From Zootoca vivipara (Eukaryota): a DNA stretch of 64,000 nt. This document shows, in pieces, positions 3,326 through 62,383 of this stretch. The stretch is from positions 48,422,001-48,486,000 of the forward strand of contig NC_083285.1 of the NCBI RefSeq assembly GCF_963506605.1, in the 5' to 3' direction. Positions within the stretch are counted from its first letter, which is position 1. Every line of letters begins with the position of its first letter. The notes beneath the pieces were generated by a model. That model ran no database searches and had not been told where the DNA came from. It worked only from the letters and a program-made list of their open reading frames with translations. Position numbers and translations under genes: made by a program.

Positions 3326-3424
3326 ACACGTTCTTTGCTGAGTGTGTTTGAAGAAGATGCAGGGACGCTCACAGAATATACCAACCAGTTGCTTCAAGCA
3401 ATGCAGCGAGTTTATGGGGCTCAG
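3326..3424 (+). CDS. APPL2: APPL2 exon 2
   Basis: cag|ACA..CAG|gt; TRSLLSVFEEDAGTLTEYTNQLLQAMQRVYGAQ. Confidence 0.95.
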
Positions 3425-6400
3425 GTAAATCACTTCAAATGTTTCCAGTTCCCTTTCTGCCCCTCAACTCTTTTAGAAACGACGTATTGTTTTATTTCAA
3501 TAGCATATTGAGCTTTCATAACGGGTAATATAGAAAACCATAAAAAGAAACCCGCCACTTCCCTGAAGAAAACACAAATAATCATGAGCAATTAAATAGT
3601 CCTGAGATGGTATGTTGGATGTTGTTGGGTCAGTAATGGTGTTGTCCGGGTGTATTTGGCAGCAAAGTTGGCATCTTGCTCATCTTCTAACATTGTGTAT
3701 GCCATCAAATGCCAACAGTGCCCTTCAGCTCTCTATATTGAACAAACAGGCCAAACCCTACGCCAAAGGATAAATGGACACAAATATGACATCAGGAACC
3801 ACAAGACAGAGAAACCAGTAGGAGAACACTTCAGTCTCCCAGGACATTCTATACAAGATCTCAAAGCAGCTGTTTTATTACAGAAAAATTTCAGAAACAG
3901 ACTGGAAAGAGAAGTTGCTGAATTGCAACTCATTAGCAAGCTTAAAACCAGGCATGTCAAACCTGCGGCCCTCCAGATGTTTTGGCCTACAACTCCCATG
4001 ATCCCTAGCTAGCAGGACCAGTGGTTGGGGAAGATGGGAATTGTAGTCCAAAACATCTGGAGGGCCGCAGGTTTGACATGCCTGCTTAAAACCATGGAGC
4101 CACCTGGAATGAACAAAGACATAGGATTCTTATCTCATTATACATGATCAAGCTTTCCTTAGCACCTCAGCCCTTGCTCCCCCCCCGCAAGACCAATTGC
4201 AGTCATTAACAGTCGTTAACAGTCATCAACAGGTTTAACCACTCCTATCAGCCCATCACCCATTCCCATCACCCTCACCCCCACCCTCTGAATATACATA
4301 AGGGTCCGGTGACTTCTGTTTCAGTGTATCTGATGAAGTGTGCATGCACACGAAAGCTCATACCAAAATAAAAACTTAGTTGGTCTTTAAGGTGCTACTG
4401 AAGGAATTTTTTTATTTTGTTTCGACTCAGACCAACACGGCTACCTACCTGCAACAAATAATTATGATTACACCCCCCCTTGATTATATTTTATTTTTGT
4501 TCACTTAAAAATAGGGGGATAAACATAGAAAGCAATATATACTGAGGCAATTCCTGCAAATATTGGCTTCTTAGTTTAGATATGTACAAATCTTTTGACC
4601 AGAGATGCAGCTTGTTCACTCCTGCTTTTGTTAGCAAACTGTTGTTGCAACAGGGAACCTCAAATTAATCATACAGTAGTTTCTTGTTTTGTCCAAACTA
4701 AGAAACTGTGGTTACCGGAACAAATCAGGATCTTAAACTAATTCCACACCATGGTTTAAGATCCTGATCTGCTCCGAACTTGATACCCATAGTTTTCTGG
4801 TTCTGGTAAATTGGGGAACTATGGCTAATTGGAGATTTCCTGGTCTAATTGCAGCTCCCCTCAAAGAAACCCTGTACGTGGCAAAAGGCTTGTGTATCTC
4901 TCTGCTTAAGAAGCCAAGCTTTGATCATTGGAACAAGGCCACAGTTTTGCATCCCAGCTCACAGGTTCATTTTTGATTACTGGCCATCAGTCTTCCACAA
5001 AACAAGTGGGGTTCTGTCTTCCACTTTCTGTCTTAATTTGCTATGGTAATTTGTCCTGTATTAATCAAATTGGCAGGCAAAGCTTTTAATAATTGGACGC
5101 AAGTTGGTTGGTTTGTAGCATGGAAAAACAATTTTGGGGGAGGAGGTTTGGAAGGTTTAACCCCCTTCTTCCAAGGTTGTGGTCCCAATCTGTTCTGTGC
5201 ATGCATACCCCACCCCCAGCACAACAAATACTAAGATGTGAAAAAGTGCTGTATATCCAATTCACATCAATTCTATACCTTTTCTTTTCCCACCCCTTTC
5301 TTCACTGTTGTAGATTACCTTGTGGGATCATCTCTGTGCATTCAAGAGATTATTGAGAAGGCCGGTGGGGTCATATGCATAATAGCATAATAATAATAAT
5401 AATTTATTATTTATACCCTGCCCACCTGGCTTCCAACCAAATATTAAAAACAACACAGCATCAACCATTAAAAACTTCCCTGAACAGGGAAGTTGTCTTT
5501 TAAAAGTAAAATAGTTGCTTATTTCCTTGACATCTGCTGGGAGGGCATTCCACAGGGCAGGCGCCACTACCGAGAAGGCCCTCTGCCTGGTTCCCTGTAA
5601 CCTCACTTCTTGCAGCGAGGGAACCACCAGAAGGCCCTCAGCACTGGATCTCAGTGTCCGGCTGAACGGTGGGGGTGGAGACGCTCCTTCAGGTATACAG
5701 AACTGAGGCCATTTAGGGCTTTAAAGTCAGCACCAACACTTTGAATTGTGCTCGGAAACGTATGCATGCATATTATAGATGGATATTTATGCGCCCATAA
5801 ACACAGGCAGTCTTGAAGGAGTTGCTACAGTCGGAATTTGTAGCCACGTCTTCAGGTAAAGGTAAAGGTAAAGGGACCCCTGACCATTAGGTCCAGTCGT
5901 GACCGACTCTGGGGTTGCGCGCTCATCTCGCATTATTGGCCGAGGGAGCCGGCGTATAGCTTCCAGGTCATGTGGCCAGCATGACAAAGCCGCTTCTGGC
6001 AAACCAGAGCAGCACATGGAAACGCCGTTTACCTTCCTGCTGTAGCGGTTCCTATTTATCTACTTGCATTTTGACGTGCTTTCGAACTGCTAGGTTGGCA
6101 GGAGCCTTTTAAATCAAGGTTGCCCTGTGGCCCTCCAGATGTTGCTGGACATCAGGGATGATGTGAGGGATAGGTCCCTAGAGATCCACATTCCCTGTTT
6201 TAAATGAACACAACCCCTCGAGTCTTTGGCATTATGCGCACAGAACTGCCAATGCACCAAGTCCCAGCCCATCCATGTTTGTATTTGGGCTGCTTAACTT
6301 GTAACTCAATGTTGCATCACCTCCTGTAAGTGTTGGATAAAATGTCTGGAGCTCAGAAGTTCCTGGGGTGCACCTCCCTGGCATTCTTGTTTGTTTGCAT

Positions 6401-9400
6401 GCTTTCCCCAAAATTCCGGGTGTGGCCTAGCCATTGGAAGTGCTGCCTATTTACATGCCAGAAATTATAGGTGTGGTTTGGCGACTTATTTCAATTCAGC
6501 ATGGTTTGCTCAATTTAATGGGTAACAGAGGAAAGCGGATAAGGAAGGCAACCTGCTATTTGCGTACGATCAGGTGGCCTGGTAGCTTTGCCGTTTATCA
6601 GAATTTTAGCGCGGAGAGAATTTAATTTGCCTTTCTGGTCAACTTTGTGTGCGTGTGGAATAAATATAGAGCTATGTTGAAATAGACATTGGGGGGAAAA
6701 TAGGCAATGAAATGACAGCATGGCTTTTTATAACTTTCTCTTATCAGGAATCTTGTATACTACATCAAAGTCTTCAGTTTAAAGACCAGTGTTTGCTAAG
6801 CTTGGTGCCCACACTAATGTGTTTGATCTTTTTGGAAATGGAGTTGATTCAATCAAAGTGGTGTTGAAAGATGGTGGGATACGATAGACAACGGAACAAG
6901 TAACTGAGCTGCTGGCAGCAAAAGCCTCTTTTATGCATTATAATCAGATTATGCTGCATAAGTCTGAATTTGAACACTGAACATGACATTTTGACTGTGT
7001 TTATTCTGTAGAATTTGATGTCAATCCAAAAATCAGACTGAATCGTGTTGATTATTGAGATCCAGTCCCTTAATATTGCCCTTGCTTTATATCAAGGTGT
7101 CCTCTGCTTTGAAGTGCATTGCAGGGCCGGCTCGCCCATTGGCCCTAGTGGCGCAGGGCGCCTGGGCGCTGAGGGGGCGCTGAGGGGCACCCCAGCAAGT
7201 GGGGGAGCTGCACGGCGACCTCTCTTTTCCCTCCTCCTGCAGGGAGGTAAGCGAGCAGAGCAGGGGCACTAGGACCCTGTTCCGCTCTGCAGCGCCAGGG
7301 TCATCCCTCACCCCGGCGCTGCGTTTCATTGGTAGAGGCGACGCCACATGGCAGCAGCTCTACCAATGAAAACGCAGCGCCAGGGTCATCTCTGTTGGCG
7401 GGAAGGCTCGGATGCCTTCCTGCAGTCTGGGACTCTCCCTGCTGGCTCCGTGGTGCTCCGCTGCTGGTGGGAGTGGCTGCCCATGGGGGACTTCTGCGAG
7501 GAGTGCAGAGACACAGCGGCCTCCCTCACACCCGCTCCGCTCGCTTCCCTCAGCCCCCCCACCACGTCGGGGTGGTTTCCGCCCAGCTCCTTGCCCCCTT
7601 GGCCCCAAGAAACTGCCACCCCGGGCCGCTGCGGAGAGGCTGCCGAGCGCTCCCAAGCCCCGTCTTCCACGCCTGCTGAATGGCCGGCGCAGCTGCTGCT
7701 CAGCCCAGGCCCCTTGCCACCTGCCAGCCCCCCACGGACTGCGGGGATGGTGGGACAGGCTGAGAGGGAGCCTTTGGAACTGAGGCGGCGGCGGCGCTGC
7801 TTGTGAGGGACGCCTGAGAGGCTTCGTTGAGGTGGAGGCCGCCCATCCTCCTCAGGTTTGGCTTAAGTTGTTTTTGGGGGGTGGGGGGTTTGGGAACCTC
7901 CCTTATTCCCTCTTTGGGGGGCGCCGGAGGGATCTTCGCACCACGGCGCCGAATATGCTTAAGACGGCCCGGTGCATTGTGTGTGTGAGGTAGAGAGCTA
8001 TAAGTTGTAAAGTTTGTGATGTCCAAATGCGGTCAATATGTATTTGCCCCAATTTGAGCTATAAGCATTGCATACAATTACTTCTTTTCTGTGTTTGTTG
8101 TGAAATCTACTTTGTAATCTGCTTAGGTGGTGAAAGAGTTGTGCGGCTGCATTCCAAGATCATGGTAAACCATTGCTAATGTTTGACTGCAAACATGCTG
8201 GTGTATCGTGGTTTGATTCTCCTTGATTGGGGATCACGGTTTATTTCTTTTGTTCCAAAGAAGCCACATTGTAGTCAGGATTTGTTCTTGGCTTTCCAAT
8301 TATTTTTTGTTTGAGTGAAACAAACCACAATCCCCAAGCTGGATGTAGCACTAAGCTAGTGTTTCTGAATTATTACTCCCATAGGGATGCAGTGAAGTGG
8401 GGACGATTTCTGCATTCACAGTTAACCGTTAACTATGGTTTACTATGATGGGTGAACGATGCCACTGATAGGCAGTGGAGGAAAAGAGAGACAAAACTGG
8501 TTGGGAGATCATAGTTCCCTACAATAGAATTTTATTTTCCTAAAGTCTGTGGTCTTTCCACACCTCTACAATACAAACATCAGTTGAGAAGTAAAACATT
8601 AAAGCAGTAAATATGGTTTTGGGGTTATGTATACAGTGGTACCTCGGTTTAAGTACACAATTGGTTCCGGAAGTCTGTACTTAACCTGAAGCGTACTTAA
8701 CCTGAAGCGAACTTTCCCATTGAAAGTAATGGAAAATGGGTCCAAATTCCAAATAGAGTTGCTAGGGGGCAGAATAAAACTGTTGTCCAAACTGTACAAT
8801 TTGCTGTTAGAATGGTATACTAAAGATGAATTGACGAAAGAGGTAATGATAAAATGGGCTAAGGATTTTGGGCATAATATTGAATACGATGCGTGGTTGA
8901 AACTATGGAACCAAACAATAAAATTTACAGCATGTACTGCTTTGAAAGAGAATGTTTGGAAGATGATGTATAGATGGCATTTAACCCCGGTGAAATTAGC
9001 AAAAATGTATAGAATGAGTAATAGAATGTGCTGGAAATGCAATGAAAAGGAAGGGGACTTTTATCATATGTGGTGGAAATGTGAAAAGGTTAAAGGCTAT
9101 TGGGAAATGATATATAATGAACTGAAAAAGATTCTTAAGTATACCTTTCCCAAGAGACCGGAAGCCTTTTTGTTAGGAATGATAGGTCAAGAGATAACCA
9201 AGGAGGATAATACCTTATTTTTGTATGCGACAACCACGGCAAGGACATTATTGGCCCAAAAATGGAAGACCCAGGACTTACCGACAATCGGAGACTGGCA
9301 GACAAAGATTATTGAATATGCAGAATTAGCGAGACTGACTAGCAGGATTCGAAACCAGAGGGAGACAAGGTTTCTAAGGGATTGGAGTAAATTTGTGGAT

Positions 9401-12400
9401 TATATGGAAAAGAATTGTAGAGGTTTAAAGACACTTGCAGGCTTGAAATAAATCCTACGAATTGACTTTAAAGACTAGATACAAAGGAACTGCGAGATAA
9501 GAGCGGATTAGAAAACCTATTGAGGGGAGGGAGGGAAGTCAAACTCGGCGGAGTATTTTGTAATGAGTAATAAGAATTGTTAAAAGAGTGATGTATGTAT
9601 TTTGAATGTTTGTTTGTTTGTTTGTTTTGTATATTGTTTTAAATGTGTTTAATTGGAAAATTTAATAAATAGTTATAAAAAAAAAGAAAGTAATGGAAAA
9701 TGGATTAATCCGTTCCAGGCGGGTCCGTGGAGTACTTAAACTGAAAGTACTCAAACCGAAGCGTACTTAAACCGAGGTATGACTGTATTTAGAAAGAAGG
9801 GAACTCTAGAAATGTCTATAGAGTACTGCTCAGGGATACAGTGGTACCTCTCCTTACGAATTTAATGCGTTCCGAACGCACATTCGTAAGTCGAAAAAAA
9901 TTGTAAGTCAAATCCCATAGGAATGCATTGGGAGAAAAAATCTGTAAGTCAAAGCAACCCTATCTAAGAATTCGTAAGTAGAAAAAATCCTATCTAAACT
10001 GCATCCAAGATGGCGGACGGAGCTCCGTTCGTAAGTAGAAACATTTGTAAGTAGAGTTATTCGTAAGTAGAGGTACCACTGTATATGCAAGTTTGAACTG
10101 TAGCAAGGTGGTGGTGATGATGATGATGATGATGATAATAATACCTTTATTGTCAATGTACAACCTGTGCACAATGAAATTAACCAAGCCTCCCCCCCAC
10201 AAACAATCTCATTGCACTCTGTGTGCTTGTCGCACAACACACCAACCCCAAAAGTCAGTTGCATTATTTTCTGTTCAGCAGCCTAACAGCCCACAGATAG
10301 AAACTGCTTTTTAGCCTGTTGATACGACTGATTATACTTCTATATCTCCTGCCCAGGGGTAGAAAATTAAAGAGGTGCTGGCCGGGGTATGAATCGTCCC
10401 TGAGAATTTTTCTCTCTCTCCTAAGGCAACGATCTCTTGCGATGTCATCTAGCGGGCTCAGGGGATAGCCCATGATACCATGCGCTGTGTTCACCACCCT
10501 CTGTAAAGACTTTCTGTCTGTGGCTGTCAAGCCAGCGTACCACGCTGTGATACAATATGAGGAGGACACTTTCTATTGTGGACCGGTAGAAGGAGGTCAT
10601 CAATTGTTGTTTAATATTGTTCTTTCGCAAGACCCTGAGAAAATGGAGTCCCTGTTAGGCCTTCCTAACCACCTGAGTTATATTGTTTTTCCAAGTGACG
10701 TCTTCACTAGGGTAAACTCCCAGGAATTTAAAGGAAGAGACTCTCTCCACACAACCCCCCCCCCCCCCCGATATACAACGGGGCTAGTTCCCCTCTCTTC
10801 CTCCGAATTGTCACATGGCCCTGCAGCCACCTGGTGTGTGGAATTTGCAGGCTGGTCCATAAATATTGGTGCTCCTGATGAATAATATGATCTGAAACGC
10901 AGAGGGTGGCAACTGTAGTGCCCGTTAAGATTACAAATGAGGCTTATGCTGCAGTATGACGCACAGTTCACATTGCAGTAAGTCCTACTGAACTCGGTGT
11001 GGCTTACATCTGAATGGACATGTATAAGATTGCACTGTTAATTCATTTGTTTGTTTATTAAATTTACAGGTGAAACTCGGAAAATTAGAATATCGTTGTA
11101 AAGTGCATTTATTTCAGTAATGCAACTTAAAAGGTGAAACCAATATATGAGATAGATGCATGACTTGCAAAGCAAGATATGTCAAGCCTTTATTTGTTGT
11201 AATTGTAATTATTTGTCGTTAGGCGGGTCAATTATAAATGGAATGGAATTAATGAAATGTAATAGCGATATTTATTTTTGTTTATTTTTGTGTTGTTGTA
11301 ACTATTTGTTTTATTACTGTGGAATTTCCAAAAGAAAGTTTTTGTAAAAATAAAAATAAAAAATAAGTTGCATTACTGAAATACAGTAAATGCACTTTTC
11401 GACAATATTCTAATTTTCTGAGATTCACTTGTATATCCTGATCTCCCTCTCAAAGGAGCCCAGGGTGGCAGACAACAAATGATAAAACAAACCAAACAAA
11501 AAACCTTTAAAACAATTCCAGTACAGATGCAGGCTTGGAGAGAGCTCAGCTTAAAACGCCTGGTTGAAAGAGGAAGGTGCTGGCAAGACAACAGAGACAG
11601 TGCCTGCCTAATATTCAAGAGGAGCCTTTTTAAGTTGGTGTGTGATCATTAGTAATGAAATACCTTTTCTCCTTGCAGAATGAAATGTGCCTGGCAACCC
11701 AGCAGCTCTCCAAGCAGCTTCTTGCGTACGAAAAACAGGTACGCCTGATTTACCCTACGCAACCTCCATGTTCAGCAGATTAGATGGTAGAGGTGAAAAG
11801 TTTCTAAGGGGTTTGCTTAGGTATATTGCTGGCGATGCCAAACTTGCCTCAGCATCTTGGAGTAAGAATGGGGGTGGGGCGAGGGGAGAGCATAAGAAGA
11901 ACCTGCTGGACCAGGTCAGTGGTCCTCCTAGTCTAGCATCCTGTTCTCACAGTGCCTGACCAGATGCCTGTGGGAAGACTGTGAGCAGGACCTGAGCACA
12001 GCAGCTCTCTCCCCTCCTGCAGTTTCCAGCAGCTGGGGCGCAGAAGCATCTTGCCAATGGCAAGAGGGAAGAAGGGTGCACACCTGTGTCCAATACCGCA
12101 GGTTGCTTTTAGTTTATCCCATAGAACTCCATGGGAGGCACTGGGAACCTAACATCTTGTTTTCATTTCCTTTGCAGAACTTTGCCCTGGGTAAAGGAGA
12201 TGAAGAAGTGATATCCACCCTTCAGTACTTTTCAAAAGTTGTGGACGAGGTAATCCAAATGGCCGGCAAGTTTTGTCTTAGGTTTTTTTTTTATGGTGTC
12301 TGTTTATCTCGTTGAAGCTGTGGCGACCTTGAGATTTACAAAGGGGGAGCGCGGTGAAGGGTGGCCTGTTTGTGCTTTATATAGTCTGTAGAAAAGGCCT

Positions 12401-33930: not shown

Positions 33931-62383
<28,453 letters not shown>

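Follow-up and report, generated by a model that had tools for sequence, protein, structure and literature searches.

Minimal type-I hammerhead ribozymes (min-HHRs) have been described in the pseudo-LTRs (pLTRs) of metazoan Penelope-like elements (PLEs) from fish, Xenopus, turtle and snakes (Cervera and De la Pena 2014, PMC4209133), and those of reptile Penelopes are already in print (PMC4209133, PMC11167929). Cleavage by dimers was reported by Lunse et al., as cited in PMC6765202, and the function of the PLE hammerhead has been called unclear (PMC8557442). PAc, the Poseidon element of Anolis carolinensis, primes internally and uses uncleaved RNA as its main template; its hammerhead is cleaved only with protein, and insertion in vitro does not depend on the cut (Frangieh et al. 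2024, PMC11167929). A CX2-5CxxC linker between reverse transcriptase (RT) and endonuclease (EN) marks the Neptune and Nematis PLEs, and a TATA box with an initiator has been proposed in the pLTR of the rotifer element Adineta Pen2a (PMC8557442; PMC3846280). Type-I hammerheads derived from PLE pLTRs are also carried by the non-LTR retrozymes of animals, of which about 42-44% of the Xenopus copies lie in introns (bioRxiv 10.64898/2026.07.22.740005).

The window analysed here is a stretch of 64,000 nucleotides of the Zootoca vivipara genome. An initial annotation of its letters had described a minimal hammerhead in intron 2 of APPL2, sense to the pre-mRNA, and had proposed that a retroelement placed there a latent, dimerisation-dependent self-cleaving RNA. 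The host exon and the parts of the motif are as follows.

3326 to 3424, plus strand: APPL2 coding exon 2, 32 of 33 residues as in DIP13-beta/APPL2, with AG/GT borders.
4326 to 4363, plus strand: minimal type-I hammerhead with the traits described in PMC4209133.
4326-4329 (GTAT) with 4360-4363 (ATAC): helix I, 4 bp.
4330-4336: core CTGATGA, followed by the extra base A4337.
4338-4351: helix II, a perfect 14-nt palindrome.
4352-4355: GAAA; 4356-4359: GCTC; 4355-4358: the palindromic AGCU.
After C4359: predicted cut site.

The exon is closer to DIP13-beta (E 3e-15) than to DIP13-alpha (E 6e-8), and the host gene is therefore APPL2 and not APPL1. Since the window starts about 2.3 kb downstream of the first APPL2 coding exon and the exon after 3326-3424 begins at 11679, the stretch 3425-11678 is intron 2, counting coding exons. 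The motif lies about 900 bases from the donor of this intron, so that its placement by the initial annotation was borne out by the flanking exons, and every part that had been claimed for it was found where it had been put. A descriptor of the whole motif (helix I of 4 bp, CUGANGA, 4 bp or more in helix II, GAAA, UH) gave one match in the window and none in 200 Markov-shuffled sequences of 64 kb. The motif has the CUGANGA core, GAAA and NUH of min-HHRs, and shares with those of PMC4209133 a short helix I (4 bp, where 4-5 bp are expected), a long helix II, which as a hairpin has 5 bp and a 4-nt loop, an extra base between positions 9 and 10.1 (A4337), the pair G10.1-C11.1 (G4338-C4351) and palindromic bases at 15.2-16.2 (AGCU). 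The covariance-model check that had been proposed was negative: Rfam returned no hammerhead, either for the window at gathering score or for 3800-4900 at E<=10, where none of the 15 matches was one. Such a miss would be expected for a hammerhead lacking helix III. Folding of the 38-mer was no better than that of its own shuffles (z -0.08), with z-scores near zero at four lengths around the motif, which likewise would be unsurprising for a hammerhead of this shape.

The insertion carrying the motif, 3588-4453, is a Penelope-like copy of Neptune type whose 5' part is inverted and which a MITE interrupts. Its parts, with identities to the full-length relative L071, are these.

3574 to 3587, no strand: 5' copy of a 14-bp target-site duplication, 13 of 14 bases identical to 4454-4467, overlapping the first bases of the inverted piece.
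3584 to 3676, minus strand: 5' fragment of the Penelope ORF in inverted orientation, its frame broken, including the Cys-rich RT-EN linker, 95.7% identical to L071 2542-2635 on the opposite strand and recognised in translation.
3676 to 3948, plus strand: remnant of the GIY-YIG endonuclease of the Penelope ORF, 94.9% identical to L071.
3949 to 4084, no strand: 136-bp MITE inside the element, with 15-bp terminal inverted repeats.
4085 to 4453, plus strand: ORF end, 3' pseudo-LTR and tail.
4454 to 4467, no strand: 3' copy of the target-site duplication.

The endonuclease part is 98.2% identical to all four sister copies tested, and the Pfam GIY-YIG match on the window copy is weak (E 0.028). The MITE, presumably of hAT type, is flanked by an 8-bp duplication (3941-3948 and 4085-4092) and is missing from the sister copies. 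With this later insertion and a divergence of about 2%, the window copy looks like unselected decay. An apparent breakpoint at 3676 shared by the sister copies was rejected as an artefact, the window's own piece being inverted. Matches to miRNA models in Rfam were also set aside; they scored below gathering and came from the MITE hairpin and another inverted repeat. The motif thus sits in the 3' pLTR of a GIY-YIG-bearing element, and its class as a Penelope-type minimal type-I hammerhead holds both by this position and by its sequence traits. Contigs of two DNA runs, one of which may be the source of the assembly, extend across the host-element junctions, though at the 5' junction they enter the element by no more than about 14-30 letters; among the 15 joints listed from these contigs none was an empty site.

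Two of the 20 loci fetched with an RT query were full length. L071 has an uninterrupted ORF of 901 codons with RT and GIY-YIG domains and the motif in both pLTRs, at 117 and 3119, 3.0 kb apart. L067 likewise carries the motif in each pLTR, with a one-base insertion in the core of the 5' copy, and its ORF of about 900 codons is intact. A sister copy, L046, matched Pfam RVT_1 above the cut-off (E 4e-12) and GIY-YIG at 22.4 bits against a cut-off of 22.6 (E 1.5e-4). [quoted passage not shown] Neptune was preferred over Nematis because of the linker and because Neptune is the vertebrate clade, and judged by linker and vertebrate host the family would be of Neptune type. L067, L071 and most of L062-L080 form a very young subfamily with many truncated copies and near-identical protein, and this subfamily is probably still active.

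The family resembles PAc in being a lizard EN+ PLE with a pLTR hammerhead and in having two classes of 3' end, with and without the tail (PMC11167929), which among 100 copies here stood at 51 against 49. It differs in that its protein has the Cys-rich linker of Neptune and Nematis, and in that the ORF of PAc starts at helix II (PMC11167929), whereas here the start codon is at +138, 137 nt after G4326. In the Penelope of D. virilis the internal promoter lacks a TATA box and an intron comes 46 nt downstream of the start (PMC2377424); in contrast, a TATA-like box lies upstream here and no intron is indicated.

Copies are very numerous. The 34-mer 4330-4363, with T at N7, has 883 exact genomic copies, the 31-mer from G4326 with A, C or T at N7 has at least 16,013 (11,665 + 4,348), and the tail 25-mer 4376-4400 has 21,012. 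They are equally frequent on both strands, at one per 70-90 kb of genome, and a sense copy in some intron is therefore expected. Thousands of mostly solo copies per genome, a motif in both pLTRs about 3 kb apart and opposite-strand pairs were likewise described in PMC4209133. Loss of the core boxes among genomic copies had been named by the initial annotation as evidence against itself; the core is kept. In the 71 indel-free copies spanning the motif, N7 differs from the window in 70 (59 A, 11 C) and each other position of 4326-4363 in at most 4, so that with the core kept and only N7 free the master elements vary as a hammerhead should. This near-invariance apart from N7 is unlike the high variability within a genome stressed in PMC4209133. 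Helices I and II are invariant among subfamilies, which leaves covariation nil, and the downstream tail is conserved too. In the N7=T subfamily the AUG of the core opens an upstream frame of 12 codons (window 4333-4371); the commoner N7=A and N7=C forms are without it. A search for a second hammerhead family, of GAAAC type, with GAAACGTC gave 0 matches against 3 for the control. At one locus, L143 (G000:C1:2777100-2780400), four 598-bp units stand head to tail. Every unit comprises an intact hammerhead, the tail, roughly the first 28 ORF codons fused to the endonuclease end, and the pLTR. By this arrangement L143 would resemble a retrozyme tandem and might allow dimerisation in cis.

The 5' side of the motif is where the family is most informative, and two further features are needed here.

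4295 to 4302, plus strand: TATA-like box TACATAAG, a putative promoter element 31 bases before G4326.
G4326, plus strand: first base of helix I and candidate capped transcription start of the element.

The 5' ends were scored in the first 100 tail-anchored copies, with paired inverted copies, which are not independent, counted as two. They were spread across 4322-4346 and not confined to G4326: 27 of 87 copies at risk ended in 4322-4334 (0.024 per base) and 10 of 97 in 4335-4346 (0.009), against 8 of 60 in 4290-4321 (0.004) and 3 of 100 in 4347-4375 (0.001). The base before G4326 differs from the element's T in 4,348 of the 16,013 copies and is then G in 2,874 (66%), whereas before the control base A4328, where the preceding base is changed in 1,355 copies, G was found in 19 of the 100 listed (Fisher p 2e-21). 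Before T4325, A or T was found in about 19 of the 100 copies listed, the rest having C, mostly one subfamily's own base. At the cut site, the C preceding A4360 is absent in 342 copies, with T in about two thirds of the 100 listed, and one base before that C the expected T is absent in 131; 5' ends of the genomic copies thus do not accumulate where the cut is predicted. The TATA-like box lies 30-31 bases upstream of G4326 in all subfamilies, at 31 in 82, 30 in 23 and another distance in 5 of the 110 copies that keep it, and its spacing is maintained by compensating indels between subfamilies. The canonical distance from TATA box to start is about 30-31 bases. Between two subfamilies compared, 8 of 31 upstream bases differ, against 1 of 50 from G4326. 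In the DNA contigs, the equivalent of G4326 was entered in 6 of the 12 joint rows listed, five times through a single G and once through AG, and several of the listed joints start from L071 279-301, a part of the ORF found only after the upstream pLTR. An untemplated 5' G has been ascribed to copying of the cap in L1 and SVA (PMC3287187). Three RNA-seq runs, of which about 6% each was read and whose libraries are not end-capturing, did not show read starts accumulating at G4326.

Taken together, the edge, the excess of G, the TATA-like spacing and the lack of a pile-up at the cut site suggest that the capped RNA starts at G4326 and that the template is uncleaved. The same edge could arise without a cap if the RT stalled or folded back on the mirror helix in the cDNA, or if the RNA were trimmed at the base of helix I, the G then coming from microhomology or terminal addition. 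GTAT is complementary to ATAC and helix II is a perfect palindrome, inverted junctions are present in 16 of 57 copies, several G's before G4326 could instead be the final base of an inverted copy, the ends in 4335-4346 lie within the structure, and of six copies that are preceded by G, flanked by host sequence and bounded by a duplication of 7 bp or more, four have the G inside the duplication and two outside it. However, the cliff is on the 5' side of the structure, which the enzyme reaches last, the G excess is specific to 4326, the single G's between two element parts in the listed contig joints are supplied by neither side, and the TATA-like spacing is held across upstream bases that differ between subfamilies. 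We regard an origin of this edge without a cap as unlikely.

We consider it probable that the motif is the hammerhead of a truncated PLE copy, inert in APPL2, and that in the intact element it forms the first 38 bases of a capped mRNA. RNA polymerase II would start at G4326 of the upstream pLTR, and the element's RT would prime in the tail 85-130 bases downstream. When priming took place at the 5' copy of the tail, the enzyme would read through the uncleaved hammerhead to the cap, which may be copied as one extra base, and the run-off cDNA could then join the target, fold back or jump template, giving many solo and inverted stubs. Uncleaved RNA would then be the template here as in PAc (PMC11167929). 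Cleavage, if it occurs, whether in a dimer or with an element protein, would remove a capped piece of 34 nt at a point 103 nt before the start codon; the ribozyme would be a switch by which the element decaps its own RNA, and insertion would have no need of the cut. The APPL2 copy itself would be a longer, 5'-inverted copy primed at the 3' tail, which retains promoter-like bases, and not a run-off stub. The whole of this scheme, with the hammerhead as capped 5' end, solo min-HHRs as run-offs from the 5' tail, a template jump rebuilding the upstream pLTR, gated self-decapping, and read-through RNA such as that of APPL2 being spared because flanking sequence would sequester helix I, is offered tentatively, its chances standing slightly below even. 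In L192, L193, L194, L196 and L233, the first 6-12 bases of the motif are stacked repeatedly before G4326, as if the enzyme had re-primed at the end of its template.

The hammerhead class is already published. The start-site reading at the level of the family is the part worth keeping: the genomic copies would record where the element RNA begins and that inserted copies come from uncleaved RNA. The accessible text of PMC4209133 gives neither a placement of the start site nor an explanation of solo copies, and a search of the literature, conducted mainly outside the subscription journals, found no paper that places a PLE start at helix I or describes a cap-derived G. The supplements of PMC4209133 or the figures in PMC11167929 may hold material relevant to this novelty. 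The reading predicts a cap at G4326 and a 34-nt capped product, and near-identical intact full-length elements exist for tests.

At the APPL2 locus, the motif could in principle be a latent ribozyme that cuts the pre-mRNA at C4359 with a partner in trans or with an element protein. The core is intact and in sense, and RNA from other copies is abundant: depth over the motif, all copies taken together, reached thousands in one run. The anole PAc hammerhead cuts once protein is added (PMC11167929), and min-HHR dimers of S. mansoni cleave weakly (PMC4209133). The reads over the motif derive from other copies and run out into other loci, and with an RNA depth of zero over the unique intron flanks of the element they speak neither for nor against cleavage at APPL2. 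However, in PMC11167929 no RNA-seq reads were found to end at the cut site of PAc. At least 16,013 copies of the motif exist and, as noted above, the element around this one looks decayed. No second intact core was found in 94 kb (the 64-kb window and 30 kb upstream), so that a dimer partner in cis is missing. One other stub of the family lies in the window.

51649 to 51840, no strand: another stub of this family, past the last APPL2 exon that was located.

This stub has an inverted tail, is without the CUG of the core and carries helix II three times, and is therefore no partner for the motif; the triple helix II suggests repeated slips of the template at the palindrome. Formation of helix I is predicted with a probability of 0.12 when the RNA starts at G4326 and of 0.00-0.04 in the read-through context, where it is disfavoured because the 5' flank pairs with 4391-4403. 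This alternative helix (window 4320-4331 with 4391-4403) is complete only in read-through RNA, and no covariation was seen in it. In nearest-neighbour models that omit the tertiary core, the active dimer, whose helix has only 4 bp, came to -11.1 kcal/mol, against -13.6 for two monomers and -30.6 for an inactive duplex of the palindromes, by far the most stable of the three. Cutting of APPL2 pre-mRNA by this copy is accordingly rated as improbable, a regulatory role in APPL2 has no support, and the motif at this locus is likely inert. What the initial annotation had said of a retroelement placing a ribozyme here stands as regards the PLE class, the core and the sense orientation, and goes unsupported as regards a latent self-cleaving role in the intron: the copy number, the missing cis partner and a helix I probability of at most 0.04 lend no support to a meaningful self-cleaver there.

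The conserved intronic hammerheads of amniotes (RECK motif) and the HDV-like ribozyme of CPEB3 are single-copy, old and conserved. Like them the motif lies in a host intron on the sense strand, but it is young, it belongs to a very large family of repeats, and its copy number in the Zootoca vivipara genome is far from single. Tandem hammerhead units were not found at the APPL2 locus, which has a single truncated PLE, unlike the tandem arrays of retrozymes (bioRxiv 10.64898/2026.07.22.740005). Given the share of Xenopus retrozyme copies in introns, an intronic copy is ordinary, and as an intronic feature the APPL2 motif matters little.

A splice acceptor at G4324, by which the hammerhead would open a spliced exon, was rejected as highly improbable: although the window shows a pyrimidine tract and CAG just before 4325 and the intron of the D. 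virilis Penelope ends at helix I (PMC4209133), a large subfamily has TTTCAC there and no AG, the edges peak at G4326 and not at T4325, and no shared upstream exon precedes the short copies.

Two other repeats were noted in the window. An imperfect inverted repeat of about 70 bases at 4710-4780, with weak miRNA-model matches, is probably the remnant of a small DNA transposon. A very abundant and heavily transcribed short repeat lies at about 5856-6105, which we take to be a Sauria-type SINE. Several contigs join the Penelope tail or a T-run to the start of this repeat, which hints at a preference for nested insertion.
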